From the NCBI GenBank assembly GCA_964187785.1, contig OZ076409.1:16494001-16558000 (forward strand): a DNA stretch of 64,000 bases, read 5' to 3'. A program made the translations under genes and the position numbers. The stretch's first letter is position 1; each line of letters opens with the position of its first letter. The notes beneath the pieces were generated by a model, which saw only the letters and a program-made list of their open reading frames with translations, was not told where the DNA came from and made no database searches. The stretch comes from Amphiscolops sp. MND2022. Lineage: Eukaryota. Below, one piece after another: positions 8,286-59,932 of the stretch.

Positions 8286-8970
8286 TTTTTGTCAGAAATG
8301 TGGTTTAACTTCGGTGACAGTTTTGCAAAAGGGGTCAAATTGAAAAGATAGCACAAAACGGACAACGCCATCAGAAAGAGCGTCCAAAAAAACCCCCATG
8401 CTGAAATTTTCGCCGCCATCACTTGAATTTTCATTGAGTTATGTCATTTTTACTATTTTCACAAAATGTGGTTTAACTTCGGTGACAGTTTTGCAAAAGG
8501 GGTCAAAATGAACAGATAGCAAAAAACGGACAACGGCATTGGAAAGAGGGCCCAAAATTACCCCTAAAACGTGTTTTTCACACTCCTGAGTCGACTTTTG
8601 ATAATACATGGAATTTCATTTTTAAGCTTACTAATTTATGCTTTTCAGCATACATTTTCGTAATAGAGTCAAAATTTTGCTTTCTCACAATTTTTCTGGA
8701 ATATTTTTGTTTCATCAGATGTCAATAACTTGAAACGTCGTCTTTTCATGAGAATTTCTCCTCAAAACAAGTTGTTGGCTGGTAATGGTAAGTCCGTACC
8801 GCAGATAGGAGTCTCGCGCTCCAAAAATTGACTCTTTGCTTTTAGCCTAATTGTTGTGAACAGTTGACTTTTGACTTTTGCTTTCCCTGCAAATTTTTGC
8901 TGTTGAAAATTTTGAGAGTTTTTACGAGCTTTGCTCTATTCTAACAGATTATTGGAACGACTTATTGCCA

Positions 8971-10158
8971 ATGGAAAACGACGAGGTTTGTGAGGTTAGT
9001 GGCCCTTCGACTATGGATGACAATGTTTTGAACAACGAACCTTTAAATGATAATACCTCTGCACCTTCATCTAGTTATAGTAAAGTAGCTGGATCTGGTA
9101 TTCCTCCTCCACGTTTGAAAAACATTGTTAAGATGAAAATCTTCCCACCATTTCGGAAAAAACATTTTGAAGACAAGACTGCTTTTGACCTTGCTTCTAA
9201 AGAATGTATTAAAGCCATTCTCTTGGCATTCCCCACGAATCTGAGGCCAAATTTAACAATTGCCACATCATTTACAATGAAAGCAACACGTAAAATGCAT
9301 TCTGTTGACGTTGTTGCATCTGCAGATGCATCATATTACTTCAGTAAAATACAGACAAGTGGCATAGAAATGCTTGGTTGTACGGTCTTTCCGTCTGGAG
9401 AAGATTATTGGCAAGCTTTGCCTGGGTTATATCCTAAGCAGGTCGAAATCAAATTGTTGCATGTGCCTGTTGTGTGTAACGACGCGGAATTGCTTGAATT
9501 GCTACAATTGCCGCCAAACACAGAAACCATTCGTGTGAAACATTTCACTGATGATGTTGATGGAATCCATTTTTATAATGGTAAAGCTACCATTTCGGTC
9601 AAAGCGCAATCCGCAGAGCACGAAGATCAATTGAGACAATGGTCAATCAAAAGCCATGAAGAAAAAGGTTATATTTGGGAAGGAATTCCAATTTATGCGT
9701 TTATTCCTGCCCTACATTCTTGTCCTCATTGTAAGAAAATAAAGAAACCTTTTCATGGTCATGATATTTCATGGTGTCGTTATGCAAAAGAGGCAGCCAA
9801 AACAGAGGAAGCTGTAAAAGTGGCGGCTCTTAACGACGCAGCCGAAAAAAAGGCTGCTGATAAACAACGAAATCACTCAATGAAAAAGAAAGTTACAGAA
9901 GAAAAGCATTTCACGGAAAGTGATGACATCAGTGATTCTGATCAAGAATTGGGCGTCTGTACAGGAAAAAACAGGAAACAAAATGAATCTGATTTGCCAT
10001 GGCAAGAAGTTAAAAGTAAACGGTCTCGACAACAAGAGGCTCGTAAAGAAAGAGAAAGAGAGCGCGTTGCACCCAAAAGGAAGAAATACATATTTAAGTC
10101 TGACAATTTTTTGAAAAATCCTGAAAAAAATTCAAAATCATCTTCACTTAAATCATAA
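8971..10158 (+). CDS. Family A ORF1 (putative nucleic-acid-binding protein, CCHC motif)
   Basis: First in-frame ATG at 8971 (the track start 8878 is TTG); CPHC-x9-HDISWC; basic C-terminus; similar to ORF1 of B and D. Confidence 0.85.
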   Translation: MENDEVCEVSGPSTMDDNVLNNEPLNDNTSAPSSSYSKVAGSGIPPPRLKNIVKMKIFPPFRKKHFEDKTAFDLASKECIKAILLAFPTNLRPNLTIATSFTMKATRKMHSVDVVASADASYYFSKIQTSGIEMLGCTVFPSGEDYWQALPGLYPKQVEIKLLHVPVVCNDAELLELLQLPPNTETIRVKHFTDDVDGIHFYNGKATISVKAQSAEHEDQLRQWSIKSHEEKGYIWEGIPIYAFIPALHSCPHCKKIKKPFHGHDISWCRYAKEAAKTEEAVKVAALNDAAEKKAADKQRNHSMKKKVTEEKHFTESDDISDSDQELGVCTGKNRKQNESDLPWQEVKSKRSRQQEARKERERERVAPKRKKYIFKSDNFLKNPEKNSKSSSLKS

Positions 10159-10169
10159 GCATTAATTTT

Positions 10170-13100
10170 ATGAATTTGTGTTCATTCAATTGTAGGGGAC
10201 TTAAAGATCCAAATCGGCTTAGCAAGGTAATAAGTATATGCCAAAGTTCTGGTGTTCAGTTACAGAACATGGTATTGAATATTCAAGAAACGAAAATTGA
10301 AAGCCTGACAAAAGGTCATCTCAAAATCTTAGAATACTTTGATTTGAACTATGAAATAGTCCCAGCTGTGAATCAAGCAGGTGGACTTATTACTATTTTC
10401 CCAAAGTGTTGGAGTGTCAAAAAAGTCTATAAATCAGCAGGCTTGATGTTTTTGGATTTTCAAAACGTTTTAGGACTTTTTGTGAACGTATACATAAACC
10501 CATTAGATTACTCGCTGGAACATTTCAATGTTGGTTTTTCTAAACTTGATGCAGAAAAATGTGAGAAAATATATCTTTCTGGGGACCTCAATGCTCTTGC
10601 ATCAAGGGAATGCTCCACTAACCCCAACATTATGTCCAATGACATCCGTTTGATTCGTTTTCGCAAAATTGTGATGAAATTGTTTTCAATTCATTTAAAT
10701 CATATACAACCTGCTCCTGGATCTGACATTTTTACTCATTTTGATAAACGCACAGGCTCACTGAATCAAATTGATCATTTTTTCACTACCGATTGCTCGT
10801 ACTTTTTTGATACAAAAAACATTGCTTTCAGTGATCATAGATTGCTGATTTTGAGGAATGTAGACGATAGTTTCTTTTGCCCCAGCTATTGGAAATTCAA
10901 TGACAACGTACTTCAACATCATGTTGTGATTCAAGAGATCATCCGTGCGAGTTGTAACTCTGTTGATGAGCTTGATAGCTATGACACCTCAAAAAATTTA
11001 ATTAGAGACAAACTGAGATCACTCTGTATTCAGTGCGCCCGTGTAGAAAATCATGAAGAAAGTGCAATAATAAAAGAAATTAGACAAATTGAAAACGCAA
11101 TATGTCAGGCAGGTTCCAACGAAGTTTTATTAAGACAGTTGTCTCACTTCAATAGTCAACTTTTAATGATACAAAATTTGAAAGCCAGAAAAGATTTGAG
11201 ACAAATTAAAAATTTTTTCACAGATTTTCATCATGGAGATCCTCATACAGTTAAAAAACATGTGAAACGAAAACGAATGAAATCCCGAATTACTGCAATT
11301 AAAATAAACGAATCAGAAATATCTTATGATGAGGAGAAAATTCACCAGGAGTTTGTTCATCATTTCACAGAACGTTTTTCAAAGCCTCGTCTGACACATG
11401 AACAATTTGTTCAAAGTTCTCTTTTGAAAAATCAAGCTCTTAGTGACTTCTGCTCTAAAAACACTCAAAATATTCAAGATATTAGAAATTTATGTTCAAC
11501 AAGACAGGAAATTATGGAACAAGAAGTTAAACAGGCCATTAGAAAATTGAATTCAGAAAGCGCTCCAGGCTTGGATGGTCTGACTTCAAATTTTTATAAA
11601 GCCCATGCCGATTTTTTTGTCCCTTACCTAACTAAAGTGTTCAATCTTGTGCAGAATCAACAAAGGGTTCCTGAGTCCTTTAGGAATGCCGTAGTGAAAT
11701 TTATTCCAAAAAAAGAAACATCAGATTCAGTTGAAGATTATCGTCCAATTAGCTTGATAAATACAGATCAAAAAATTCTCTCTCATGTTCTGACTGCTCG
11801 TTTGATTGATCCGCTGTCAAAAATTATAGGTGTCCATCAAAGTGCTCATCTACCCAATCGTAACATTCATTCATCACTCATGAAAATAAATCTCAATCTG
11901 GAAACACTTGAAGATTCTGACTGCTTAGTTGCAGTAGACTTTAGCAAAGCGTTTGACAGGATTGATCGACGTTTTCTTTTTTTATTGCTCCAAGCAATAG
12001 GAATAGACGATATTACTTTGAAGTTAATCAAGGCTATGTATGAAAAAACAATAGCTTTTCTAGACATAAATGGATATCTTTCAACACCAGTGCAAATGGA
12101 AAACGGAGTCAGGCAAGGTTGTCCAATGTCAGCCCTTTTGTTTGATCTAGGTGTAGAACCTGTTTTACAATGTATTCGAGACTCTAATACTATTCTTTCA
12201 AACTCAATTTTCAAGGTAATTGCCTATGCGGATGATTTAACATGCTGCATTAAAAAGGAATCTTTTGATCAACTGATGGACACTTTGAATTGGTTTTCTC
12301 AAATAACTAATCTCGTTCTTAATCATGCTAAAACTGAGATTCTCTGTCCTTCACAGTTTGACAATGGGATCACAACTAAAGAGACTGCAAAAATTTTGGG
12401 TGTCACTTTCGAAGTGGGAAATCCTAAGATTGATATGTCTTCAATGACTTCCTATGCTGAAAAATCTCGCTTCTTCTGCAACAAATTCAATACGTTTGTT
12501 GCTCGTGCGAAAAATATTGACACTTTTGTAATGCAAAAACTTATTCATCAAGTTAGGCACAAAACTGCACTCAAACGACAGTTAGAAACTTTGGACAACA
12601 TCTTTGTTGATTCAATTTGGTTGGGACGAAAGCACAACCTGAAAAAATCGGTGCTTCAAAAATCTTGGTCAGCAATGGGAATAGCGCTGAAAAACTTCAC
12701 CAAAACTATTACATCGTCAAAAATAATTGACTTGAAAAATTTTTTAGGAGAAGATTTGACTGGGTCATTTTTTGAAATGTATCGTAAAACTTCGCATTAC
12801 AAAAATCTAATTAATCTAGTAAGGACTTTCAATTGCACGCTTCATATTAATCAAGGGAATCAGATCCACTTACTTAAAGGAGAAGAGATTAAAGATTTGA
12901 CTTTGTCAATGCGCACGAAAGAAATCTACAAGTTTCTTTCGGACTCAGATAATTCGGACGCTCTTCAGCGGATAACGAAAATTTCTTCGAAAATTTGCTA
13001 TCCCCCCGAACACATTTATACCTTCATTCGCCAACTTTGGAAACACCCAAGTTATGCTGCGTTTGAGAAGAACTATTTATATCAATTCCTAATGAATTGT

Positions 13101-13403
13101 TATCTAGATAAACCCAAAAAATGTGAACTTGGATGGGTTTTTGATTGTTTCTGTTGCTTTTGTGGATCAGCTGAGGAATCCCATAGTCATCTTTTGTTTG
13201 AATGTACAAATGTGCCTAACTTGAATTTTTTTCAAGTGACACAATCAATAAACTTGAGTTTTTTAGACCCAGGGGACATATATCCATTTAAAAGACTGAT
13301 TGCTCTGCTTTTGTCGTCTTGGAGTGGAGATAGCTCCAAGTTCCAGAAATATTTCCTTGATTGCATAAATCTCAGGAACCCTTCCCACTTCAATTCTCTG
13401 TAA
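10170..13403 (+). CDS. Family A ORF2: APE endonuclease + reverse transcriptase + C-terminal CCHC
   Basis: FNCRGL, IQETK, GDLN, SDH; APGLDG, RPISLINTDQKI, DFSKAFD, GVRQGCP, YADD; CCFC-x8-H-x4-C. Confidence 0.97.
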   Translation: MNLCSFNCRGLKDPNRLSKVISICQSSGVQLQNMVLNIQETKIESLTKGHLKILEYFDLNYEIVPAVNQAGGLITIFPKCWSVKKVYKSAGLMFLDFQNVLGLFVNVYINPLDYSLEHFNVGFSKLDAEKCEKIYLSGDLNALASRECSTNPNIMSNDIRLIRFRKIVMKLFSIHLNHIQPAPGSDIFTHFDKRTGSLNQIDHFFTTDCSYFFDTKNIAFSDHRLLILRNVDDSFFCPSYWKFNDNVLQHHVVIQEIIRASCNSVDELDSYDTSKNLIRDKLRSLCIQCARVENHEESAIIKEIRQIENAICQAGSNEVLLRQLSHFNSQLLMIQNLKARKDLRQIKNFFTDFHHGDPHTVKKHVKRKRMKSRITAIKINESEISYDEEKIHQEFVHHFTERFSKPRLTHEQFVQSSLLKNQALSDFCSKNTQNIQDIRNLCSTRQEIMEQEVKQAIRKLNSESAPGLDGLTSNFYKAHADFFVPYLTKVFNLVQNQQRVPESFRNAVVKFIPKKETSDSVEDYRPISLINTDQKILSHVLTARLIDPLSKIIGVHQSAHLPNRNIHSSLMKINLNLETLEDSDCLVAVDFSKAFDRIDRRFLFLLLQAIGIDDITLKLIKAMYEKTIAFLDINGYLSTPVQMENGVRQGCPMSALLFDLGVEPVLQCIRDSNTILSNSIFKVIAYADDLTCCIKKESFDQLMDTLNWFSQITNLVLNHAKTEILCPSQFDNGITTKETAKILGVTFEVGNPKIDMSSMTSYAEKSRFFCNKFNTFVARAKNIDTFVMQKLIHQVRHKTALKRQLETLDNIFVDSIWLGRKHNLKKSVLQKSWSAMGIALKNFTKTITSSKIIDLKNFLGEDLTGSFFEMYRKTSHYKNLINLVRTFNCTLHINQGNQIHLLKGEEIKDLTLSMRTKEIYKFLSDSDNSDALQRITKISSKICYPPEHIYTFIRQLWKHPSYAAFEKNYLYQFLMNCYLDKPKKCELGWVFDCFCCFCGSAEESHSHLLFECTNVPNLNFFQVTQSINLSFLDPGDIYPFKRLIALLLSSWSGDSSKFQKYFLDCINLRNPSHFNSL

Positions 13404-13563
13404 CGAAACGTCTTTGATGATATGTTGAATATCATGGTAATACCACTGAAATTCTGTACGATTTAACATTAAACATGAAACATTGTATTGGCTGATGGTT
13501 GTAATGATTGTTCTTATTGAAAGTTGATTGATGAAAAATTGACTCGTAAATATAGTCTTTGAA

Positions 13564-19340: not shown

Positions 19341-19898
19341 TTTTTGTCAGAAATGTGGTTTAACTTCGGTGACAGTTTTGCAAAAGGGGTCAAATTGAAA
19401 AGATAGCAAAAAACGGACAACGCCATTAGAAAGAGCGTCCAAAAAAACCCCCATGCTGAAATTTTCGCCGCCATCACTTGAATTTTCATTGAGTTATGTC
19501 ATTTTTACTATTTTCACAAAATGTGGTTTAACTTCGGTGACAGTTTTGCAAAAGGGGTCAAAATGAACAGATAGCAAAAAACGGACAACGGCATTGGAAA
19601 GAGGGCCCAAAATTACCCCTAAAACGTGTTTTTCACACTCCTGAGTCGACTTTTGATAATACATGGAATTTCATTTTTAAGCTTACTAATTTATGCTTTT
19701 CAGCATACATTTTCGTAATAGAGTCAAATCTTTGCTTTCTCACAATTTTTCTGGAATATTTTTGTTTCATCAGATGTCAATAACTTGAAACGTCGTCTTT
19801 TCATGAGAATTTCTCCTCAAAACAAGTTGTTGGCTGGTAATGGTAAGTCCGTACCGCAGATAGGAGTCTCGCGCTCCAAAAATTGACTCTTTGCTTTT

Positions 19899-20137
19899 AG
19901 CCTAATTGTTGTGATAAACTTATTAAATAGGTAAGTATTCCAACCTCGGAATATTTCTTGCCTGTTTGAGGTGTTAATCACACATACTTATCAATAGGGC
20001 CCAAAAGCCAGTAACCAAAAACCAGTAACCAATAACCAACCTGTACTTACTGTTTGAAAGGTAAGTATTCCAACCCTATTGATAAGTTTTATTTGAAAGC
20101 AGACTGCGAAAGTGGTCTGCTGCCCAATTTTTCGAAC
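19899..20137 (+). pseudogene. SL RNA gene interrupted by mini-element
   Basis: Split by 19946-20058. Confidence 0.75.
19946..20058 (+). mobile_element. Non-coding SL-targeted mini-element, copy 2, site 2
   Basis: 113 bp; 17-bp TSD AGGTAAGTATTCCAACC 19929-19945/20059-20075. Confidence 0.88.
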
Positions 20138-20256
20138 AAGGAACAAGCTAGTCTGCACTAACTTAAAAGTTACGCGTGTTTTGACCGAGAAAATTTTCGT
20201 ATCATTGTACGTAATTTTGTTGTTAAGCATATAAAGCTATTGATTTTACAATGATC

Positions 20257-20375
20257 GGCTACGACCATACCATGTTGAATGCACCGGTTCTCGTCCGATC
20301 ACCGAAGTTAAACAACATAGGGCCTGGTTAGTACTTGGATGGGAGACCGCTTGGGAACACCAGGTGTTGTAGCCT
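20257..20375 (+). rRNA. 5S rRNA
   Basis: Copy of 625-743. Confidence 0.98.
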
Positions 20376-21280: not shown

Positions 21281-21862
21281 TTTTTGTCAGAAATGTGGTT
21301 TAACTTCGGTGACAGTTTTGCAAAAGGGGTCAAATTGAAAAGATAGCAAAAAACGGACAACGCCATTAGAAAGAGCGTCCAAAAAAACCCCCATGCTGAA
21401 ATTTTCGCCGCCATCACTTGAATTTTCATTGAGTTATGTCATTTTTACTATTTTCACAAAATGTGGTTTAACTTCGGTGACAGTTTTGCAAAAGGGGTCA
21501 AAATGAACAGATAGCAAAAAACGGACAACGGCATTGGAAAGAGGGCCCAAAATTACCCCTAAAACGTGTTTTTCACACTCCTGAGTCGACTTTTGATAAT
21601 ACATGGAATTTCATTTTTAAGCTTACTAATTTATGCTTTTCAGCATACATTTTCGTAATAGAGTCAAAATTTTGCTTTCTCACAATTTTTCTGGAATATT
21701 TTTGTTTCATCAGATGTCAATAACTTGAAACGTCGTCTTTTCATGAGAATTTCTCCTCAAAACAAGTTGTTGGCTGGTAATGGTAAGTCCGTACCGCAGA
21801 TAGGAGTCTCGCGCTCCAAAAATTGACTCTTTGCTTTTAGCCTAATTGTTGTGAAAGCTTTG

Positions 21863-22056
21863 ATCCCTGAAGTCTGAGCCCTAGCCCCTTCAGTGGAACA
21901 GTTGACACCTCAAATAGTATAGAAGCCACTGCGCCAGCTGTGATTTCTCTAGATCCCTGAAGTCGAGCCCTAGCCCCTGAGGTGGATCGAGAAATCAAAG
22001 CTGAGGGAGAAACTGGCTGTATCCCTGAAGTCGAGCCCTAGCCCCTTCAGTGCGAT
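21863..22056 (+). repeat. Three ~35-bp direct repeats in the family B 5' UTR
   Basis: ATCCCTGAAGTC(T)GAGCCCTAGCCCCT at 21863, 21953 and 22021. Confidence 0.9.
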
Positions 22057-22118
22057 CGTTGGTGGAGACCCCCGCTTTTTGCAACTTTTTTCACCCGCTT
22101 TTTTCATAAAACCTCAAA

Positions 22119-23540
22119 ATGCCTCCTAAAAACTTCCTAGAAACAGCCTCTAGCAAAAAGAAATTTGAATCTTATAAACAAGGATCGAGAAGAAACTCAA
22201 CATCAAATCTAACATCAAACATACCCAACCCTGAAGGTAAATATATCGGACCAGCTGAACGAAATCGTCTTTTGAAAGAAAAGGAAGAAGAAGAACAGAG
22301 AAGACTGAAGATTGACAAGATGATTGAAGATACAAGGGAAGAATTTCCACCGATAGAAAGTTCCAGCAAACCACAATCACCACAGCCTAAAAGCCAACAA
22401 CAGGATGAAATACAAAACGAACAACGCCCAAAACAACAGCAGCCTCAACCTCAGCCCGACATTAGTAACAGTCAAAACAGCTACAGTAATGTGGTCTGTA
22501 ATCAAAAAAACGTAGTCGTAAACAAAATCTTCCGGTTGAAAATTGTACCTCCTTTTCGCAAAGAACATTTCGAAAACAAAAATACCCTCGAAACTGAGAT
22601 AGCAAAAGCTTATGCTGAAATCCTAAAACCATTCAAACCTCAAGTGCGAATGTACATTACAATTTCGAGAACTTTTGAAGAAAAATGGGGAAAAAGACTT
22701 CACATTTTACATGTAATTGCCCCTGAAGAAGCGGAAGAAGACATCGAAAACATTAAAACTAAAGGTTTACAAATAATGGGCAGAACAGTATTTCCAACTG
22801 GAGACGATTTTTACCAAGTTCGTAACAGTCAATTTCCCCGGAAAGTGTGGGTAAAGATTAACAATTTGCCGTTTCTTTGCAGCGATGAAGTTTTACTCAG
22901 TCTACTAGACCTCCCAGAAGGAGTTGAGATTAGTGAAAATGTAACAAGAGAAACGATACAAACTGAAAATGGCACCATCCACAACGGAAAGGCTAAACTG
23001 TCAGTTGTGGTACCAGACAGTGAAAAACTCAAAGAACTCAAACAGTGGTCTTTGGAGAAAAGTCACATTTGCGTCACAAAATGGTTCGAAATTCCGATTT
23101 ATATGTCGACCCCAAGCCTGCACAAATGTGACGCTTGTGAAAAAGAAAATCGGAAATCGTACATTGGCCACGACATAGCGTGGTGCAGGGTCTTAAGGAA
23201 ACCTGAAAAAACTGAGGAAGCTCCCGAAAGCTGCCAAGAAGAAACAGCGGACGAATCACAAGCTGAACAAGAAAACGAAGTATGGGCTGACGCACCAACA
23301 AAATCCTTCCCAATTACAAACAAAAAGAACAAGAAAAGAGCGAAGTCGAAATCTAAAGAGACCACCAGCCCTGGATTGATGCAGCAGAATAAATTTCAGC
23401 TTCTTTCTACATCCAGTGACCAACCTGAAGCAATTCTAAGCGCAACGTCAACAATACAAAACCAGCCACAAAATCCAAAGAACCCGCAGCACCCCGAAAC
23501 GCCCTGTGAAGCACCCCTGGAAAGAAGCGACAATGGATGA
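22119..23540 (+). CDS. Family B ORF1
   Basis: 473 aa; KIVPPF, GRTVFP and CDAC-x10-HDIAWC motifs shared with A and D ORF1. Confidence 0.88.
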   Translation: MPPKNFLETASSKKKFESYKQGSRRNSTSNLTSNIPNPEGKYIGPAERNRLLKEKEEEEQRRLKIDKMIEDTREEFPPIESSSKPQSPQPKSQQQDEIQNEQRPKQQQPQPQPDISNSQNSYSNVVCNQKNVVVNKIFRLKIVPPFRKEHFENKNTLETEIAKAYAEILKPFKPQVRMYITISRTFEEKWGKRLHILHVIAPEEAEEDIENIKTKGLQIMGRTVFPTGDDFYQVRNSQFPRKVWVKINNLPFLCSDEVLLSLLDLPEGVEISENVTRETIQTENGTIHNGKAKLSVVVPDSEKLKELKQWSLEKSHICVTKWFEIPIYMSTPSLHKCDACEKENRKSYIGHDIAWCRVLRKPEKTEEAPESCQEETADESQAEQENEVWADAPTKSFPITNKKNKKRAKSKSKETTSPGLMQQNKFQLLSTSSDQPEAILSATSTIQNQPQNPKNPQHPETPCEAPLERSDNG

Positions 23541-26500
23541 AGAAATAGAAATTTTTTCAATTAATGCTAGAGGGTTAGCCTCAAATAAATCAAAATTAAT
23601 TGAGATTTGCAACATTGTTAAGAAAAATAAAAAACATGAAACATTTTATGTACTGATACAAGAAACTAAGCTGGAAAAAATGAAACCGGAACTTCTTAAA
23701 ATAATTCAATATAACAATTTGTCTTTTCAAATAGTTCCCTCAGAAAATAAAAGTGGAGGTCTAATGATACTTTATGATAAAAACACCGAAATAGAATTAC
23801 TTGACAAGAACCAATGTTCCCTAACAATTCGAGACAAAAAATCGGATTCAATAATTATAAATACTTATATAAATCCAAAACAGTACAATTTTCAGCCTCT
23901 CAAAGATACTATTGAAACACTAGAACTAACATCGGATCAAACTATTTATATGGGAGGTGATTTCAATGCCATCGATCCTTCAGATATCAATGAAGAAAAC
24001 AAAACGTTCAATATGACTGTAAAACCAAATGATATTCGACTATTGCGATCCAAAAAACTAATACATTTGAACTCAAGTCTCCTTCTGATAGATCTTGCGC
24101 AACTCTTACAGAATCGCCAACCGACGCATTTTGAAACACGGTCTGGAAAACAAAGCCGCATCGATTATATTTTTAGTAATAACCAAAATCTCACCATCGA
24201 AAAAAACAGGATCGAAACATTGCCCTTTGCTTTTTCGGATCACAAATGCCTCCACCTTTTTAGAAATAGCAACTATCAGTATTCTCAAAAACTTTGGAAG
24301 CTCGATAACATTGTATTTAAATATCCGGAGAAAGTGAAAGAAATACTAGAAACATCTAAAGTCGCATCCGAAAAATTTGGGAACATTGTGTCTTGTCATG
24401 ATATCTTTAAAGCGAAAACAAGAGATCAACTAAAATACCTTAGTGCTACAAGCAAAAAGATGCTAGTGAAACAAAAAGAAAAAGTTCAGATGGATATTGA
24501 AAAACTTGAAGAAAATTGTTCTAAGGGAAATTGTTCTGACCAACAGATCAAACAGAACTTAGAGCACCTGACATGCCTCAAAAATAATCTTCAATTGATC
24601 AAAAATGAAGAATCTGAAAATTCAATTCAACAAATCAAAAACTTCTTTAGGGAAGCCAATGATGGAAACACAAAAAATATCAAATGCTTAGCGAAAGCCT
24701 CAAGCTTAGCTAAGGATATCAAAAAGATTGAAAAACAAGATGGATCATTCACAGAAGATCCTGACGAAATTTTAAATGAATTCAAATCTTTTTATGAGAA
24801 ATTTAGCCAACCAAAATGGAAACCAACAGAAACATCCTCGAAATCTCAGGATAAATTCATTGAAAAGTTTTTTAAACAAAAAAGGAAAAGCATTGAAAAC
24901 ATTGAACAATTGTTCAAAGAAACGTTGGAGGACCCCGACAACGAAATCACAGTATATGAAGTTGAAAAAGCTATCTCTAAACTGAACTCAAACAGTGCTC
25001 CTGGATCCGATGGACTTACAAGTCAATTATACCAAAACCACAAAAACTTTTTTGCCCCGTATCTTTCAAATCTATTTAATAAAATCAATGAAAATGGAGA
25101 AGTTCCGGACTCATTTAAACATGCAATCATCAAAGTAATTCCTAAGAAAAATAATTCACTGAAGGTATCCGAATTTCGGCCAATTAGTCTCATTAATACG
25201 GATCAAAAAATTCTTTCTCATGTTCTAGCAGAAAGACTCAAACCTATTTTATCAGTATTAATTGGTAATCATCAAAACGCTCATTTACCAAATAGAAATA
25301 TACATATTGCCATACAAAAAATTCAGCATTACGCCCATGAAACTACTCGTAGTCAATCACTTATCGCTATTGACTTCAGTAAAGCTTTCGACTGTGTAGA
25401 GCGTAGCTTTTTACAAAAACTGATTGAAAAATGTCCAATCGATAAGTTTACTCAAGAAATGATTTTACTTACGTACAAGGATACTTATGCTTTCATTGGA
25501 ATGAAAAATGGAATTTCCACAAAATTCAAAATAGATAGAGGGGTGAGACAAGGCTGTCCTCTCTCAGCATTGATTTTCAATATTTGTCTTGAACCTCTTC
25601 TATAAAGAATTCAAAAATCAAAATACATAAAATCAAAACAACAAACAAAATGTATTGCCTACGCAGATGATATAACGATCAGCCTCTACAACAAATCTCT
25701 TCGGAAGCTATTGATTATTCTGGATCATTTTCACGAAATAGCAGGCTTAGAAGTTAATTTAGCCAAAACTGAAATCCTTTCGAAAGCGGACAAATTATTT
25801 GTATCGGAAAAACTAACAAGAGTTACCACAACAAAAATTCTTGGAGTTTACATTTCGCTGAATAAAACTCTCAAAAAAGAAACCAAGAACGCAATAACGA
25901 ATGCTTTTAACTCAACAGAAAAGTTCATACTAAAAAATAGTTCGTTCCGTGCGAGAGCTAGAAATATTGAGACTTTTATCTACTCGAAATTAATTCATCA
26001 TCTGAGACACGAAAATTTGTATAAAAAATTTCTTCGAAAAGTTCAATCGAAAATAATAGATGTTTTCTGGCTGTACAAAAAACACAATGTTAAAAAAGAA
26101 ATTCTTGAGCTACCAATTGAAGAGGGCGGAGTAAACCTCAAGAACTTCTCCAAATACTACCTAACTGCCAAGATTATGAACTTGAAGTTCCTAGCGGTTA
26201 ACCCAAAGGAGAGAAAATACATACAAGAATTAAAGAAATCAAAATTTTTTTCAGAATTAGAAAAACACTTCGAAAAACAACACATTGAAATCCTAGAACT
26301 GAACCCAGAAGAACTTATAATCCAACATCATTTCACTACGCTTAATATAACAAAAGAGACAACTTCGAAAGAAATTTATACTTTTTTGAACAACTCCTCA
26401 ATAAACGTCCCACCGCCTCTAAAAACTGAAGTTACTGCAACAAAACAAAATATAGCACCCGAAATTTTGAACTCAGTTACAAAGAACATCTGGAAAAACA

Positions 26501-26859
26501 AAAAACTCACTTCGTTTGATAAAAACTATCTTTACTGCTTCCTAATGAATTCGTATCTAGATAAACAAGACAAGTGGCTTAAAAATCTTGTTCTCCAACC
26601 ACTATGTTTCGCATGTGAAGCAGAATTTGAAACATGGGACCATTTAATGTTTTCTTGTAAAAATTTGAAAACGTTAACATTGAAGTTGAACGTTTTTTCA
26701 TGGAAGGAAATATGGCTTGATCGAAGTTGTCTCTCTCAAAAACTCCTTGTAGCAATAATGCTCTCGTCGTGGACAGAATCAATTGGAGACTACTTAAAAT
26801 ATTTTCTGGAACGTATGAAAGTAATACTAATACCAGTTGCAAATCTATCTGATAATTGA
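23533..26859 (+). pseudogene. Family B ORF2 (APE-RT-CCHC) with premature TAA at 25603-25605
   Basis: ATG 23533 (MDEEIEIFSINARGL). The frame continues past the TAA as RIQKSK...CIAYADD and into the 25711-26859 ORF (same frame). Confidence 0.9.
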
Positions 26860-26951
26860 TGATATGATGCAATTCTGATCTAATGAATTCCAGGTTGATC
26901 TTTTGTAAAAAAAAAGGGTTGATATTATTCATGATTAATTGAAGTTTTGAA

Positions 26952-30571: not shown

Positions 30572-30810
30572 AGCCTAATTGTTGTGATAAACTTATTAAA
30601 TAGGTAAGTATTCCAACCTTGGAATATTTCTTGCCTGTTTGAGGTGTGAATCACACTCACTTATCAATAGGGCCCAAAAGCCAGTAACCAATAACCAGTA
30701 ACCAATAACCAACCTGTACTTACTGTTTGAAAGGTAAGTATTCCAACCCTATTGATAAGTTTTATTTGAAAGCAGACTGCGAAAGTGGTCTGCTGCCCAA
30801 TTTTTTGAAC
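30572..30810 (+). pseudogene. SL RNA gene interrupted by mini-element
   Basis: Split by 30619-30731. Confidence 0.75.
30619..30731 (+). mobile_element. Non-coding SL-targeted mini-element, copy 3, site 2
   Basis: 113 bp; 17-bp TSD 30602-30618/30732-30748; several substitutions versus copy 2. Confidence 0.88.
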
Positions 30811-35266: not shown

Positions 35267-35670
35267 TTTCCAACCCAAGTCCTTTTAATAAGTTTGCTTG
35301 TACATCATTCGGTTAAGCAACCCATAGCTCTGTGCTATCATTCAAACTACCATTTTACAAACCCGTCGTGAAGCACCTAAGAAGCCATTCTTTCCTACGG
35401 GGGTCGCTGGCTAAGGTTTGATCTGCGTGGATATTTTTCCAACCGGCTCGTGTGTGGTCGCGTTAGTAGATCAAGCTGAGAAACCGAGACTGGTGCTTCC
35501 CAGCGTATTCGTGAGGTTGCGCTGAAGCTTTCTTGGCGGTCGGCTGGCAGGAGCCCTCAATAAACTGCCAGTTGTCCCAGCAGAGCTCTTCACAGCTGGC
35601 AGTGATAGATGCTCTGTTTCCCCCTAAAAACAAAACAACTCTTTCCCTTTTATTTCAACTGAACTGAAGA

Positions 35671-36867
35671 ATGGATTACGCAGCAGCAGCAGCAAAATCA
35701 AGCGAAACAACAGAAGACTACCTCCCCCCACTTCTGTTTGTACTTCCAATCACTAAAGAAGACTTCAACACTCCGAACGGAATTATTGACATCTTCGTTA
35801 AACTCTGTACGACACTCTTAGCAAAACTACCATGTGAGGCAAGAACGAAAACGGTCATCCAACGAGTAACATACGGGTTCAAGAAATTGAAGGCAGTCAA
35901 AGTAAACTTGCCAACTTCTTGTCAGAACGTTCAAAACGAAATGCTCGGCATGGGGCTAGAATGTGGGAACAAAACGGTATGGCCGGTGCGAGACGACCGA
36001 ACCTACAGATTCTACCCGTGCAATGTCAGCATCAAGATTCAAAATGCCCTGCCCAATCTGACCAACGAAGAAATCAAGAACGAACTGAAACTACCCGAAG
36101 GCATTACTGCGAACGACGACTTGAACTTCAAAACAGTCAGCATTGGGCCGTACATGAAAGTCTTTGATGGAACAGCGACAATCTCTGCCACTGTTCAATC
36201 TGCCGAGCAAATGGAAGAAATGAAAAACTGGTCGCGCAAATCTTTCTTTGAAGAAAAACAAGTTAGAAATCAAGTGACTCAGATGTATGCTCCTAACATC
36301 ATGACATGTACTTTCTGTGAAAAGAAAGGCTCCTTCTACAGAGGTCATGATGACACTTGGTGCACAAAGAAAACGAAAGAAGAACGCGAACTGGAAAAAA
36401 AAGCGAAGGCGATCGAAGACGAAGGCGACGTCTTCACAGCCGACGAACAAAGTGTACACAACGAACAAATCGCAAAAATTAGAAACGACAGCTGTGCATC
36501 AACATCAAGCAGAAATAATAAAAGACGACGCAGCACACCAAAGCGCGCCAACTCGGAAAAAAACCCACGACTCAGTGCGAGACAGCGAACCAGCCAAATA
36601 CCAAAGATGAAAGCAAAAGCTCAAAATGAGAACAAACCCGAACAGAAAGAAAGTACAAGTCAAACTGCAAACAACAACAGTGATAACAATGACGAGAATG
36701 AAGAACAAGATACCACAAGCACGAAGAACGCAGATACCGAAAACAGATTGCCGAAACCGCTGAACATGAGAGATTTTGTGGATGCAATGAATCCAATCCA
36801 TCACATAGAAACAAATGAAACAACAAACAACAACGTCAACGAAACAAACAATACGAAGACGAAATGA
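35671..36867 (+). CDS. Family C ORF1
   Basis: 398 aa; GNKTVWP and CTFC-x9-HDDTWC; stop overlaps the ORF2 start (ATGA). Confidence 0.88.
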   Translation: MDYAAAAAKSSETTEDYLPPLLFVLPITKEDFNTPNGIIDIFVKLCTTLLAKLPCEARTKTVIQRVTYGFKKLKAVKVNLPTSCQNVQNEMLGMGLECGNKTVWPVRDDRTYRFYPCNVSIKIQNALPNLTNEEIKNELKLPEGITANDDLNFKTVSIGPYMKVFDGTATISATVQSAEQMEEMKNWSRKSFFEEKQVRNQVTQMYAPNIMTCTFCEKKGSFYRGHDDTWCTKKTKEERELEKKAKAIEDEGDVFTADEQSVHNEQIAKIRNDSCASTSSRNNKRRRSTPKRANSEKNPRLSARQRTSQIPKMKAKAQNENKPEQKESTSQTANNNSDNNDENEEQDTTSTKNADTENRLPKPLNMRDFVDAMNPIHHIETNETTNNNVNETNNTKTK

Positions 36868-39800
36868 CGACGCCCAACATTGTTAGTTTCAATTGTAGGG
36901 GTCTTGGCAATCCCTTGAAACTCACAAGCCTAATTGCAAACACTGACATCAACAATGACGTCATTGCAATTCAAGAAACTAAAATGAAAAAACTAAAGAA
37001 AAAACATTTGAAAATACTCGAGTCCTACGACCTGAATTACGTAATCAGCCCATGCGACAAATCAAAAGCGGGCGGCCTGCTGCTTTTGTTCAAAGCAAAA
37101 CATAACGTAGAGTTGGTTACCCAAAACAAGTCTTTTCAAATTATAAAGATGTCAAACCAAGCCATTGAAACAAAGATGGCCAATGTTTACATATGCCCCA
37201 GCTGGAGTATAAGCAAAATCAATGAAGAACTTGAAGACCTGAAACTCAACTTGGAATCAAAGCATCTCAGGCATATTGAACCATGTGTAATAGTTGGTGA
37301 CTTGAATTGTTTCGATGACGTCACAAGAAACAAACATCCTCAATATGCAAAACACAAAGTTATACTGAAAGCGTTTGAAAAAATGGGCTTGATGGACATG
37401 GCAGTGAAGCTTGAGAATATCGAGAACACACACTTCGCGCCAGCCCAAAAACCATCGCGCCTGGATTATATCTTCTCAAATGTTGTGAGTCAGAAACAAG
37501 AAATCAGAACGATCAAGACATGCTTCTCAGATCACCGAATTTTGCGCCTGTCAAGCAAGCATAAGGCCGAGCAAGGTCAAAAGATCTTTAGAATGGATGA
37601 CACAACTGTTGATGAAAACGTCAAAACCCTGAAAACGCTGATTTCACAAACAAATGGCTTGACCGGTGAACAGCTAGCGAATGATGCGTATCTCACAATG
37701 AAAAATGAAATTTCCAACTTTCTAAGACAGGCTAGCATATGGAGAGCAAGAAATAACAAAGACAGACTGCTCAAAGGGCCCGACGCAGAAGCTGAGCAGA
37801 ATCTTGCAAAAAGAATGCTAGCAGCAGTGAAGGTCAAATGCACTGACCTGAATGAAGGAAACTTGAAGATTGTTAAAAAGTACTGCTCTGACAATGCAAA
37901 CAACCAAAGCAACGCGATCAAGAAGCTGAAAACACAGAAAGATCGAATTATCTCAAGTGAGAATGAGATCATAGATGAAGTTACAAAGTACTACAGTAAG
38001 CTCTACGCCAACGAAACAATTGATGAGAAGAAACAAGAGTGCCTCATCACAAACTTCAAAAAACAGATCTCTGAAGATGAAAGAGAACGTCTAACTCAGC
38101 AAATCACCCTAGACGAAATCAAAAATGCGATTGACAATCTGAACAAAGAAAGCGCGCCAGGCCCAGATGGACTCACCCCAAAACTGTTTCAAACGTTCAA
38201 GGAAGAATTCAGTCTTATGTTTCAAAAGATGTTTGAACATGCTGCAGACGGTAACAACTTACCAATGGCATTCAACCAAGCCTTCATTAGACTACTTCCG
38301 AAAAGTGGTGATCTGACAACATTGAAGAACTGGAGACCAATAAGCCTGATCAACACTGACAGCAAGATTTTTTCAGCAGTAATTGCAAACCGAATGAAAA
38401 GTAGCCTCCGCGAAATCATCCACCCAGATCAATGCGCATATTTGAAAGGCAGACAAATGTCAAACGCCACACTGCTACTAAAATCTCTGTGCACAAACAA
38501 AAGAATGAAAAAAACTTTGACACTAGCTGGACTCGACTTCAGCAAAGCCTTCGACAGGGTAGATCGTTCGTACTTGCTGAAACTTATAAAACATGTGGGA
38601 TTCCCTCCCAACATATACAACATGATAGAGCAACTGTACAAAGATACACGATCTAACGTTCTAGTCAACTCCTTCATCACAAGACGAATACAGCAAGAAA
38701 GAGGAGTGAAACAAGGCTGCCCAGTCTCAGCTCTTTTGTTCATCCTAGCTATTGAGCCATTGCTTGAACTACTGAGATCGTCATCGAGCCTGACTGGAAT
38801 CGCAAAAGGAAAATTGAAGAAAAAAATCATTGCATATGCTGATGACGTCACAATGTTAGTTGAGAATGAAGAACAACTGAAGCAAGCAATTCAAACGGTT
38901 GAAGACTTTGGCAAAAGCACCCAATTCGCCTTGAACGCTGACAAAACGGAACAGTTTGACCTGAACCGAAGAAATGTAGATCAAAAGATCAAACTCCTCG
39001 GTTTGTATTTGTTCAGCAACCAAAAATGTGAAAAGCAGCACTACCAGCAACAACTGATCCAAGAAAGCGAAAGAGCAAAGAAAGTGTGTAGACCATCAAT
39101 GTCGATGAAAACTAAAAGTTGCGTCATGAAAGCCTTCGTAATGCCAAAAATAGTGTTTCATGCGAAAGCCTCAAACTGTGATCGAGCAACTTGGAAAAAA
39201 GTTCAACGAAACCTAAAACAAGGACTTCACAACAATAGGAGCAATCAGATTTCAGAACGCCTTCTTTTCCAAAGCACCAATGAAGGCGGTGTTGGCTTCC
39301 CATGCGTGAAGACCTATGCAAGCACTTCTTTTCTGATGGATGTGTGGAGAGCAGTGTTCCACAATGACGATCACTTTATTGCACTCGAAATCAAAGAAGC
39401 AGTAGAAGACGAGAAAAGTTACGTTCACAGCAAACTGAAACAAATGAAAACGATAACGAAAGCGCGAGCGATAACTTTCAAGCGAGAACACATAGAGTTT
39501 GTGACAAGTGAAGGACCAACAAAAATGCCTGCTACTTCAAAAGCAATATACGCCTTTGCAATCCGCCGACAGCATGCAGACTTCGTAGATGAAAGAATCA
39601 TGAAAGCGGGATCAAAACTTCAAACAGCACCCCAACAACTTCTGTACACACTCAAAGCAATTTGGAGAAGCAACAAACTGAACCCTGTTCAACGAGACGT
39701 CTTCTATAATTTCAGTTTCAATCTTTACCGAGACAAAGTATTCCTCCATGCAGCTGGCTACAAGTCTGATGATGACTGTTTCCTTTGCGGAGCAAGTAAA

Positions 39801-40031
39801 CAAACACATGAGCATCTGATCCTAGATTGTCAAAAAACAAAGCAGATTGCTGAAACCCTTGGAATTCGCAGCATGAAAGATCTGTACCAGCAGGCAGAAC
39901 AAGACACATGGAAAAAAGTGAGATTCGTAACAACTCTGCTCATATGTTCATGGACCGACAACAAGAAAGAAGTGGAACAAATGATTCACAACTTTCCCAT
40001 CACTACCAAGCAAGTTGGCACAGTGGCTTAG
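36864..40031 (+). CDS. Family C ORF2: APE endonuclease + RT + CCHC
   Basis: FNCRGL, IQETK, GDLN, SRLDY, SDH; APGPDG, WRPISLINTDSKI, DFSKAFDRV, GVKQGCP, YADD; CFLC-x8-H-x4-C. Confidence 0.97.
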   Translation: MTTPNIVSFNCRGLGNPLKLTSLIANTDINNDVIAIQETKMKKLKKKHLKILESYDLNYVISPCDKSKAGGLLLLFKAKHNVELVTQNKSFQIIKMSNQAIETKMANVYICPSWSISKINEELEDLKLNLESKHLRHIEPCVIVGDLNCFDDVTRNKHPQYAKHKVILKAFEKMGLMDMAVKLENIENTHFAPAQKPSRLDYIFSNVVSQKQEIRTIKTCFSDHRILRLSSKHKAEQGQKIFRMDDTTVDENVKTLKTLISQTNGLTGEQLANDAYLTMKNEISNFLRQASIWRARNNKDRLLKGPDAEAEQNLAKRMLAAVKVKCTDLNEGNLKIVKKYCSDNANNQSNAIKKLKTQKDRIISSENEIIDEVTKYYSKLYANETIDEKKQECLITNFKKQISEDERERLTQQITLDEIKNAIDNLNKESAPGPDGLTPKLFQTFKEEFSLMFQKMFEHAADGNNLPMAFNQAFIRLLPKSGDLTTLKNWRPISLINTDSKIFSAVIANRMKSSLREIIHPDQCAYLKGRQMSNATLLLKSLCTNKRMKKTLTLAGLDFSKAFDRVDRSYLLKLIKHVGFPPNIYNMIEQLYKDTRSNVLVNSFITRRIQQERGVKQGCPVSALLFILAIEPLLELLRSSSSLTGIAKGKLKKKIIAYADDVTMLVENEEQLKQAIQTVEDFGKSTQFALNADKTEQFDLNRRNVDQKIKLLGLYLFSNQKCEKQHYQQQLIQESERAKKVCRPSMSMKTKSCVMKAFVMPKIVFHAKASNCDRATWKKVQRNLKQGLHNNRSNQISERLLFQSTNEGGVGFPCVKTYASTSFLMDVWRAVFHNDDHFIALEIKEAVEDEKSYVHSKLKQMKTITKARAITFKREHIEFVTSEGPTKMPATSKAIYAFAIRRQHADFVDERIMKAGSKLQTAPQQLLYTLKAIWRSNKLNPVQRDVFYNFSFNLYRDKVFLHAAGYKSDDDCFLCGASKQTHEHLILDCQKTKQIAETLGIRSMKDLYQQAEQDTWKKVRFVTTLLICSWTDNKKEVEQMIHNFPITTKQVGTVA

Positions 40032-40320
40032 CCAAAGACCATGAGTCAAACAAACGAGGTTCGAACCTCTGACGGAACCAAGACACAAACATGAAAAAAA
40101 CTCTTTTACCTTATTGTTTGAAAGGTAAGTATTCCAACCCTATTGATAAGTTTTATTTGAAAGCAGACTGCGAAAGTGGTCTGCTGCCCAATTTTTTGAA
40201 CAAGGAACAAGCTAGTCTGCACTAACTTAAAAGTTACGCGTATTTTGACCGAGAAAATTTTCGTATCATTGTACGTAATTTTGTTGTTAAGCATATAAAG
40301 CTATTGATTTTACAATGATC

Positions 40321-43754: not shown

Positions 43755-44118
43755 ATTCGGTTATGCAACCCATAGCTCTGTGCTATCATTCAAACTACCA
43801 TTTTACAAACCCGTCGTGAAGCACCTAAGAAGCCATTCTTTCCTACGGGGGTCGCTGGCTAAGGTTTGATCTGCGTGGATATTTTTCCAACCGGCTCGTG
43901 TGTGGTCGCGTTAGTAGATCAAGCTGAGAAACCGAGACTGGTGCTTCCCAGCGTATTCGTGAGGTTGCGCTGAAGCTTTCTTGGCGGTCGGCTGGCAGGA
44001 GCCCTCAATAAACTGCCAGTTGTCCCAGCAGAGCTCTTCACAGCTGGCAGTGATAGATGCTCTGTTTCCCCCTAAAAACAAAACAACTCTTTCCCTTTTA
44101 TTTCAACTGAACTGAAGA

Positions 44119-45312
44119 ATGGATTACGCAGCAGCAGCAAAATCAAGCGAAACAACTAAAGACTACCTCCCCCCACTTCTGTTTGTACTTCCAATCACTA
44201 AAGAAGATTTCAACACGCCGAACGGAATTACTGACATCTTCGTTAAACTCTGTACGACACTCTTAGCAAAACTACCATGTGAGGCTAGAACGAAAACGGT
44301 CATCCAACGAGTATTATACGGATTCAAGAAATTGAAGGCAGTCAAAGTAAACTTGCCAACTTCATGTCAAAACGTACAAAACGAAATGCTCGGCATGGGG
44401 CTAGAATGTGGGAACAAAACGGTATGGCCGGTGCGAGACGACCGAACCTACAGATTCTACCCGTGCAATGTCAGCATCAAGATTCAAAATGCCCTGCCCA
44501 ATCTGACTAACGAAGAAATCAAGAACGAACTGAAACTACCCGAAGGCATTACTGCGAACGACGACTTGAACTTCAAAACAGTCAGCATTGGGCCGTACAT
44601 GAAAGTCTTTGATGGAACAGCGACAATCTCTGCCACTGTTCAATCTGCCGAGCAAATGGAAGAAATGAAAAACTGGTCGCGCAAATCTTTCTTTGAAGAA
44701 AAACAAGTTAGAAATCAAGTGACTCAGATGTATGCTCCTAACATCATGACATGTACTTTCTGTGAAAAGAAAGGCTCCTTCTACAGAGGTCATGATGACA
44801 CTTGGTGCACAAAGAAAACGAAAGAAGAACGCGAACTGGAAAAAAAAGCGAAGGCGATCGAAGACGAAGGCGACGTCTTCACAGCCGACGAACAAAGTGT
44901 ACACAACGAACAAATCGCAAAAATCAGAAACGACAGCTGTGCATCAACATCAAGCAGAAATAATAAAAGACGACGCAGCACACCAAAGCGCGCCAACTCG
45001 GAAAAAAACCCACGACTCAGTGCGAGACAGCGAACCAGCCAAATACCAAAGATGAAAGCAAAAGCTCAAAATGAGAACAAACCCGAACAGAAAGAAAGTA
45101 CAAGTCAAACTGCAAACAACAACAGTGATAACAATGACGAGAATGAAGAACAAGATACCACAAGCACGAAGAACGCAGATACCGAAAACAGATTGCCGAA
45201 ACCGCTGAACATGAGAGATTTTGTGGATGCAATGAATCCAATCCATCACATAGAAACAAATGAAACAACAAACAACAACGTCAACGAAACAAACAATACG
45301 AAGACGAAATGA
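44119..45312 (+). CDS. Family C ORF1 (copy 2)
   Basis: 397 aa, nearly identical to 35671-36867. Confidence 0.88.
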   Translation: MDYAAAAKSSETTKDYLPPLLFVLPITKEDFNTPNGITDIFVKLCTTLLAKLPCEARTKTVIQRVLYGFKKLKAVKVNLPTSCQNVQNEMLGMGLECGNKTVWPVRDDRTYRFYPCNVSIKIQNALPNLTNEEIKNELKLPEGITANDDLNFKTVSIGPYMKVFDGTATISATVQSAEQMEEMKNWSRKSFFEEKQVRNQVTQMYAPNIMTCTFCEKKGSFYRGHDDTWCTKKTKEERELEKKAKAIEDEGDVFTADEQSVHNEQIAKIRNDSCASTSSRNNKRRRSTPKRANSEKNPRLSARQRTSQIPKMKAKAQNENKPEQKESTSQTANNNSDNNDENEEQDTTSTKNADTENRLPKPLNMRDFVDAMNPIHHIETNETTNNNVNETNNTKTK

Positions 45313-48300: not shown

Positions 48301-48475
48301 CCTTGGAATTCGCAGCATGAAAGATCTGTACCAGCAGGCAGAACAAGACACATGGAAAAAAGTGAGATACGTAACAACTCTGCTCATATGTTCATGGACC
48401 GACAACAAGCAAGAAGTGGAACAAATGATTCACAACTTTCCCATCACTACCAAGCAAGTTGGCACAGTGGCTTAG
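45309..48475 (+). pseudogene. Family C ORF2 (copy 2) with a 1-nt deletion frameshift near 47414-47418
   Basis: C1 CGAAGAAATGTAGAT versus C2 CGAAAAATGAAGAT; the remainder continues in ORF 47447-48475; could be a homopolymer error. Confidence 0.85.
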
Positions 48476-48764
48476 CCAAAGACCATGAGTCAAACAAACG
48501 AGGTTCGAACCTCTGACGGAACCAAGACACAAACATGAAAAAAACTCTTTTACCTTATTGTTTGAAAGGTAAGTATTCCAACCCTATTGATAAGTTTTAT
48601 TTGAAAGCAGACTGCGAAAGTGGTCTGCTGCCCAATTTTTTGAACAAGGAACAAGCTAGTCTGCACTAACTTAAAAGTTACGCGTATTTTGACCGAGAAA
48701 ATTTTCGTATCATTGTACGTAATTTTGTTGTTAAGCATATAAAGCTATTGATTTTACAATGATC

Positions 48765-50346: not shown

Positions 50347-50569
50347 AGCCTAATTGTTGTGATAAACTTATTAAATAGGTAAGTATTTCTTGCCTGTTTG
50401 AGGTGTTAATCACACATACTTATCAATAGGGCCCAAAAGCCAGTAACCAAAAACCAGTAACCAATAACCAACCTGTACTTACTGTTTGAAAGGTAAGTAT
50501 TCCAACCCTATTGATAAGTTTTATTTGAAAGCAGACTGCGAAAGTGGTCTGCTGCCCAATTTTTTGAAC
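50347..50569 (+). pseudogene. SL RNA gene interrupted by mini-element
   Basis: Split by 50388-50490. Confidence 0.75.
50388..50490 (+). mobile_element. Non-coding SL-targeted mini-element, copy 4 (5'-shortened), site 2
   Basis: 103 bp; TSD AGGTAAGTATT 50377-50387/50491-50501 with TATT microhomology at the 5' junction; body matches copy 2. Confidence 0.88.
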
Positions 50570-54427: not shown

Positions 54428-55216
54428 TTTTTGTCAGAAATGTGGTTTAACTTCGGTGACAGTTTTGCAAAAGGGGTCAAATTGAAAAGATAGCAAAAAA
54501 CGGACAACGCCATTAGAAAGAGCGTCCAAAAAAACCCCCATGCTGAAATTTTCGCCGCCATCACTTGAATTTTCATTGAGTTATGTCATTTTTACTATTT
54601 TCACAAAATGTGGTTTAACTTCGGTGACAGTTTTGCAAAAGGGGTCAAAATGAACAGATAGCAAAAAACGGACAACGGCATTGGAAAGAGGGCCCAAAAT
54701 TACCCCTAAAACGTGTTTTTCACACTCCTGAGTCGACTTTTGATAATACATGGAATTTCATTTTTAAGCTTACTAATTTATGCTTTTCAGCATACATTTT
54801 CGTAATAGAGTCAAAATTTTGCTTTCTCACAATTTTTCTGGAATATTTTTGTTTCATCAGATGTCAATAACTTGAAACGTCGTCTTTTCATGAGAATTTC
54901 TCCTCAAAACAAGTTGTTGGCTGGTAATGGTAAGTCCGTACCGCAGATAGGAGTCTCGCGCTCCAAAAATTGACTCTTTGCTTTTAGCCTAATTGTTGTT
55001 CACGCGTCGGTTGGTTAGTTATCTTTGACTTTTGACTTCTGATTGTGAAAAACTTTTTTGACGAGTTTTTAACACATAGTACCGCTAAAACTATAGAAGT
55101 TTAACGAAAAAATTGTTTATTTGGGTTTATACCCCTTTGCACTTTACCCCCTCTGGGTTTATACCCCCCCCTTGGGTTTATACTCCCTTTTGGATAGAGG
55201 ATAGGAAAACGACTTC

Positions 55217-59780: not shown

Positions 59781-59932
59781 CTAAGTTCAATTTTATTTAT
59801 ATCTTGCAACCAATGAACCATTCACTTACTTTGATTAGCTACTGAATTGTCTGAATTATGAACTTGGTCATGACCTACGCTATTTGATTGATTCATTTGT
59901 TCCTACTGATTTACTGTAATTAATTCTTTAAA

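Follow-up and report, generated by a model that had tools for sequence, protein, structure and literature searches.

Site-specific insertion in SL or snRNA genes is the habit of the CRE, SLACS and CZAR elements, and the CRE group uses a restriction-like endonuclease. The same kind of insertion is described for NeSL and Utopia (PMC4640811) and for Keno (PMC4494074), elements for which the parts of these papers on which we draw mention no non-autonomous partner; NeSL and Utopia too use a restriction-like endonuclease, unlike the autonomous family C treated below, which has an APE domain and L1-group features. The R2 SIDE, according to a part of PMC3414825, is short, non-autonomous and site-specific in a tandem RNA gene array; it lacks a promoter of its own, is co-transcribed with its host gene and uses the site, 3' end and duplication of its partner, and it consists of a 5' HDV-like ribozyme plus the partner's 3' UTR in Pol I-transcribed rDNA. 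SINEU elements, as portrayed in a section of PMC4494074, are non-autonomous, derived from snRNAs and free of an internal promoter, and their target preference is that of an APE-type Tx1 partner, Tx1-Mar; their heads are sense U1/U2 and their target is Mariner. Short non-coding retroposons are also found in trypanosomatids, likewise trans-splicing organisms, where NARTc, RIME and SIDER, in the partial accounts used here, are dispersed and carry the 77-79-nt promoter/ribozyme hallmark of their LINE, being neither targeted to SL genes nor antisense to them.

The short element that we describe here sits in SL RNA genes of a 64-kb window (the whole stretch of DNA that was analysed) and has the general properties listed above for the R2 SIDE, co-transcription with the host gene being presumed; it differs in that its clear partner homology amounts to about 14 nt, its body is antisense to the host, and its host serves as a substrate in trans-splicing, with donors that are predicted to be masked. 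Like SINEU it is non-autonomous, related to an snRNA, free of an internal promoter and similar in target preference to an APE-type partner, but it is antisense to the SL RNA and targets the SL gene itself. With classical SINEs it has in common a length of 97-114 bp, the absence of coding capacity, a 3' tail shared with a partner LINE (family C, one difference), and a 16-bp duplication with 5'-shortened copies (4 of 46), typical of TPRT; it lacks, however, the tRNA, 7SL or 5S head with an internal Pol III promoter, its 5' module being antisense SL instead. An earlier note on this DNA had called the element SINE/SIDE-like, and only the second half of that label survives, in part: the target site and junction type are those of the autonomous family C, while ribozyme families gave no match over 19700-20240, be it at the gathering threshold or at E<=5, and homology with C beyond 14-15 nt is marginal and confined to old copies. 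The short element works like an R2 SIDE without the ribozyme, is not a classical SINE, and is of unusual design. Probably it is a non-autonomous retroposon that has neither promoter nor ribozyme, resides within the SL RNA transcription unit and is copied by the proteins of family C; with a partner tail of some 14 nt and mirror copies of its target, it comes near the smallest conceivable retroposon. In the open literature (outside Repbase, subscription journals and supplements) we found no report of a short antisense-SL element or of APE-type SL-specific elements.

The window is a tandem array with a 904-905-bp unit, 42 5S rRNA genes and one SL RNA gene in every array unit; tandem arrays are often collapsed in assemblies, and a run of 200 N at 2458-2657 marks an assembly gap within this one. 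In the unit on which we concentrate (forward strand, as are all features given here), the host SL exon occupies 19893-19930, 38 nt as far as the RNA contigs reach. The SL exon is present on many transcripts and ends at the GT donor, judging by RNA or unknown-type contigs of four public runs that cover 19893-19930, end at this donor and have diverse, unrelated sequence behind it, a comparison that takes in 4 of 19 listed runs, as contigs holding at most 0.24 of the words, and source species that may differ from the host. The leader within this exon is identical to the acoel leader printed in a passage of PMC9911081, which makes an acoel the probable host. The fold of the plain SL RNA (z -3.95) predicts stems over exon and donor plus a second stem, and the intron arm of native stem I (20074-20087) pairs with the exon, as the earlier note had maintained; stem II (20099-20120) forms with or without an insert (paired probability 0.90). 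The U-rich stretch at 20126-20136, which in this unit has a C within the run, we take to be an Sm-like site from its position and the general consensus for such sites. The 5S rRNA gene of the same repeat unit lies at 20257-20375, and an Rfam search returned no SL model match at the SL RNA gene. Three SL/5S unit types exist across arrays on different chromosomes (window 19800-19892 compared with the C12 and C13 arrays); their exon and donor are invariant, and the differences lie just ahead of the exon, 75-90 nt past the donor and in the neighbourhood of the Sm-like site. Contigs of one run (X19) over window 19840-20240 have the same exon and differing introns, which suggests related SL RNAs of other species.

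The reference copy of the short element, a member of subtype S1 (34 copies in the genome), spans 114 bp at 19946-20059 and is flanked by the two copies of a 16-bp target duplication, the upstream one with donor 1 at 19930-19945 and the downstream one with donor 2 at 20060-20075. It contains no ORF, the window contains no tRNA, and no Rfam family was found at the element, in agreement with the absence of an ORF and of a tRNA or 5S head noted from the sequence before. Its 5' module (19948-19982) is a degenerate, G·U-compatible antisense of SL exon and donor 1, in which 19957-19969 pairs with the exon end and donor over 13 nt, three G·U pairs included. At 19986-19999 follows a 14-nt perfect antisense of the downstream intron arm at 20074-20087, derived and present in S1 only; the exact complementarity had been pointed out earlier, and a 14-nt Watson-Crick match to the SL RNA is reached by 0 of 300 dinucleotide shuffles of the body. 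An A/C-rich, unpaired linker (20000-20042) holds most of the variation among S1 copies, and the 3' tail (20043-20059) pairs with donor 2 through 20043-20051, its last 14 nt being common to family C with one difference. The S1 copies that the earlier note had placed at 19946, 30619 and 50388 are all present: besides the reference copy, the window holds a variant S1 haplotype at 30619-30732 and an S1 copy at 50386-50491 (start 50386 or 50388) that is 5'-shortened at a microhomology with the target. To these comes one 98-bp S2 copy at 1345-1442, antisense to nearly the whole exon and without the 14-nt arm. The 14-nt pairing with the downstream half, to which the earlier note gave prominence, is therefore confined to S1; S2 and the old copies lack this arm.

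DNA searches of the genome with S1 and S2, in which 40 of 46 and 40 of 48 candidates were scored, were complemented by an exact 21-nt junction pattern that found 81 sites in the whole genome and none in the control. All 81 junctions could be classified, 44 belonging to the short element, 36 to family C and one to a 15-nt tail stub on an unrelated repeat. Two further S1 copies with altered downstream targets bring the array-type copies to 46 (30 full S1, 4 shortened S1 and 12 S2; 20 distinct sequences), located on C1, C12, C13, C2 and unplaced contigs. Every one of the 46 has the donor target on its 5' side, sits at the donor and ends in the family C tail, mostly with the 16-bp duplication. The clustered 5' ends and the two subtypes reported before recur in this larger set, where 42 of 46 copies are full length; S1 measures 114 bp and S2 97-98 bp, the subtypes are 73-77% alike, and copies within a subtype are 96-100% identical. 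A stretch of 263 kb of the C1 array comprises 214 units, 182 of them plain, 14 with a short element, 16 with a long element and 2 artefacts of a gap or of the search pattern. When a diverged copy served as query, 18 matches were obtained, five of which are old off-array loci. The element does not, then, always lie inside an intact SL gene.

The likely mobiliser is family C, an autonomous APE-RT non-LTR element with two intact ORFs at 35277-40123, whose ORF1 is accompanied by an ORF2 with APE, RT and zf-RVT domains. A second copy (43755-48567) has a broken ORF2 and a slightly shortened 5' end; the last insert of the window (63595-64000), considered as a separate family, turned out to be a 5'-truncated C that extends beyond the window and is 99% identical to C over 4184 bases. 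Homologue searches with the ORF2 of C returned L1-like proteins at 20-34% identity and no close named relative. The insertion point of C is the SL donor (several other APE-RT families insert within the exon), and the 16-bp duplication is its mode, seen in 12 of 16 non-plain C junction rows, one plain-unit variant row left out; site, duplication and terminal nucleotides are common to both elements, so that the family C target site and end ascribed to the short element hold good. Full-length C copies (L105-L136) begin with 12 nt that are perfectly complementary to the end of the exon, and 22 of 24 5'-complete copies join the exon directly, without donor 1. Three copies (L112, L130, L133) have the duplication and then the SL exon in front of C, thereby implying that the C template also begins in the exon. 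Avoiding donor 1 and carrying the exon is hence not peculiar to the short element, as C deletes the donor and pairs with the exon. Folding at the 3' end of C is weak (z -0.56) and limited to a 6-8-bp hairpin over donor 2.

The claim that the short element is built from antisense SL is borne out by both of its ends: the 5' module can be aligned, with no gap, to a 31-nt core of the reverse-complemented exon and donor, and the exon/donor region recurs in the 3' tail as another degenerate antisense copy. Since the tail is antisense to the target, its likeness to the C tail (about 14 nt) could be convergent. Nearly all of the exon is covered by the pairing in S2 and the old copies; in S1 the end of the 5' module has been remodelled into the perfect intron-arm complement, in which one S1 copy carries a G·U change. 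Its restriction to S1 indicates that the 14-nt arm is a late addition not needed for mobility, S1 being nonetheless the more numerous subtype. A different origin would be that of a true SIDE: an ancestral C-like element would have lost its interior, its first ~50 and last ~50 bases being joined, and would later have been polished towards antisense. The old copies do resemble the 5' end of C, weakly (11, 23, 24 and 76 of 1000 shuffles reach the score), one of them (L089) resembles the C 3' UTR (82 of 2000 shuffles), and the C 5' end is itself antisense to the exon; however, S1 and S2 have no such similarity (346 and 712 of 1000, and 745 and 908 of 2000 shuffles reach the score), many tests were run on A/C-rich sequence, the 31-nt ungapped match to antisense SL lies in a register that differs from that of C, and L200, the only old relative of C to come to light, offers no better match. 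We deem this origin unlikely, if with an appreciable chance of being right; it concerns the origin only and is compatible with the proposed mechanism.

Computed folds bear on what this make-up would do to the RNA. The mean unpaired value of the donor, 0.66 in the plain SL RNA, is 0.01-0.03 for both donors in the S1 and S2 chimeras, stem II remaining unchanged, and 0 of 100 shuffled bodies, for S1 and S2 each, closes both donors; the masking of both donors with stem II kept, proposed before from the sequence, is thus reproduced in the folds. The chimeric RNAs reach z values of -7.2 (S1) and -7.6 (S2), and the plus strand of S2 folds at -72.0 versus -41.3 kcal/mol for the minus strand. Of the 56 paired positions 2 vary among S1 copies, compared with 10 of the 62 that are unpaired (p=0.032); all three variable positions of S2 are paired, and two of them break a pair. 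In contigs of public runs, whose source species may differ from the host, the 5' module is uncovered and the linker has low-depth, repeat-like matches at 80% likeness.

The substitutions within the antisense core follow the same strand. A-to-G and C-to-T changes, which keep G·U pairing on the plus-strand RNA, occur at 13 of 18 A/C sites, against 3 of 13 T/G sites with a mirror change (p=0.011 by Fisher's test, eight sequences), and S2 alone gives 7 of 12 versus 0 of 12 (p=0.005); these p values are indicative, as the statistics pool related copies over a core chosen by the analyst, and the old copies are decayed and supply 3 T-to-C sites. As part of the mechanism as a whole, it seems probable that the body originated from SL sequence in inverted orientation and that its later drift was constrained by selection for RNA pairing through G·U; rarely do genomic copies by themselves reveal selection of this strand-specific kind. 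Mismatch hairpin transgenes reportedly employ a G·U design. Engineered constructs of this type, as described in part of PMC9263138, likewise keep the RNA hairpin while substitutions break the DNA inverted repeat, although they are artificial plant constructs and serve as an analogy only. A possible alternative source of the A-to-G excess is A-to-I editing of the RNA hairpin, made permanent when that RNA was reverse-transcribed: among the copies, 9 of 12 A sites have changed to G, and the S2 core has 7 A-to-G and no C-to-T changes. Yet 4 of 6 C sites have become T in the old copies, which editing of A cannot produce, and we find this reading improbable. Editing and pairing selection alike imply a double-stranded plus-strand RNA template.

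How the copies spread can be read from their surroundings. Each of the three unit backgrounds contains the commonest S1 sequence (7 copies), four further sequences occur in two of them, and for these sequences the diagnostic bases just outside the SL RNA match the local unit type. The four 5'-shortened copies have new microhomology junctions, in three cases located at the foot of the predicted 5' hairpin. One off-array locus (L090) consists of SL exon, donor, element, tail and donor-like target at a single-copy site that resembles a cis splice donor; the duplication is short, SL promoter and intron are both missing, and a later repeat has split the element. The upstream frame of this locus, which had no match in a Pfam search, looks like a real coding exon from its sequence appearance alone. 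A search for the empty site of another old locus (L089) recovered none, the flank being another repeat. L090 resembles the expected retrocopy of an SL co-transcript and shows that the exon was in the template of at least one copy. Identical copies in three backgrounds, shortened copies, and an exon devoid of promoter and intron at L090 together point to RNA-mediated spread of an SL co-transcript, and they speak against descent of all copies from one insertion through array recombination, which the earlier note had left as an alternative. Local duplication does contribute: five S2 copies lie within 9 kb, four of them (L033-L036) with a common 2-nt deletion in stem II that is absent from neighbouring plain units, and some S1 copies form adjacent pairs, indicating that array duplication also multiplies some copies. 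The element appears to be mobile, on good indirect evidence.

The main rival to this mechanism is a spread at the DNA level alone with host-side selection for masking, whereby one or two old insertions, immobile in themselves, would have been distributed by unequal exchange or short-tract gene conversion, their hairpins keeping the interrupted SL gene harmless. It would account for the clusters with common flanking mutations and for the 96-100% identity within subtypes, and masking would help the host as well by preventing donation of a 170-nt leader. It is at odds, nevertheless, with tracts confined to ~40 nt upstream and 75-90 nt downstream, that is, to the SL transcript, with four shortened copies whose junctions are C-like, with the 15-nt tail stub joined to an unrelated repeat and with the off-array retrocopy L090. 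We rate this reading as quite improbable for the element as a whole, and for any single copy short-tract gene conversion between arrays is possible. A role of the element as a regulatory SL variant kept by the host, as a decoy for Sm/SL proteins or a source of antisense small RNA, would suit its long persistence (diverged subtypes, decayed older copies) and its presence in 14 of the 214 units surveyed over 263 kb; being scattered, polymorphic, truncated and nested, the copies nonetheless behave like a mobile element, there is no sign of a fixed position or dosage, and this explanation is very hard to sustain. Scarcely credible is, finally, the view that the copies are 5'-truncated 3' UTRs of another autonomous LINE, to which the A/C-rich linker and a possibly incomplete assembly might lend colour, seeing that no long element ends in this body at any of the 81 junctions in this assembly, that protein matches of C comprise 37 copies at 98-100% followed by fragments or full-length matches below 30%, bar one decayed copy, and that both subtypes and the old copies start at one place with a 5' half of antisense SL.

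Under the reading that we favour, an element copied by family C, the SL promoter would make a chimera of ~230-250 nt that runs through exon, donor 1, element, donor 2, intron, stem II and Sm-like site. The 5' module would fold on exon and donor 1 and the tail on donor 2, presumably sparing this RNA from trans-splicing with its 3' domain intact. The ORF2 protein of family C would recognise the common tail and start target-primed reverse transcription at another SL donor, and the cDNA, continuing into donor 1 and exon, may anneal to the identical upstream target. Such annealing would hand down an inherited 5' junction with clustered ends, with occasional early stops giving the shortened copies, and unequal exchange in the array would then multiply some copies locally. 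Should this hold, it would constitute a third route to a full-length template for a non-autonomous element, beside the Pol III promoters of SINEs and the ribozymes of SIDEs, and it makes testable how inserts in SL genes get transcribed and escape trans-splicing. More tentatively, and with a chance that we put below even, the short element may be a retroposon whose whole information is antisense to its host RNA. As an insert in a capped, Sm-bound SL snRNP it would use G·U-rich self-pairing to stop that particle from donating in trans-splicing, and the partner's reverse transcriptase would thereby be offered a stable template that returns to the nucleus, with no need of promoter, ribozyme or ORF.

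A few observations on neighbouring elements can be added. At the 5' junction of several family C copies (L105-L136) there is an additional SL exon together with target bases that are repeated or untemplated. The decayed relative of C (L200, G000:C5:70421000-70427000) is 70-75% identical in parts and lies off the array, followed by a donor-like target. Two short elements sit directly behind the 3' end of another element, one behind a C copy (L015) and one behind an exon-site element (L011). A presumed new family with a closer tail (L134) was discarded, its upstream part being a spacer-like repeat of which other copies stop before the last 15 nt. The single 45-nt region of SL exon and donor is the target, at two sites, of no fewer than five divergent APE-RT families whose ORF2 sequences are 25-46% identical; these families are represented in the window at 8860-13563, 21855-26951, 55000-59932 and 35277-40123 and elsewhere at G000:C1:16639350. 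Lastly, two loci (L074 and L075, at G000:C1:16633536 and 16636441) have at the exon site an insert of 2.0 kb whose one open frame, 542 codons long, had no RT or Pfam match; the short 3' tail of this insert is that of a nearby 5.6-kb autonomous element, and the insert possibly represents a second, ORF-bearing non-autonomous family.
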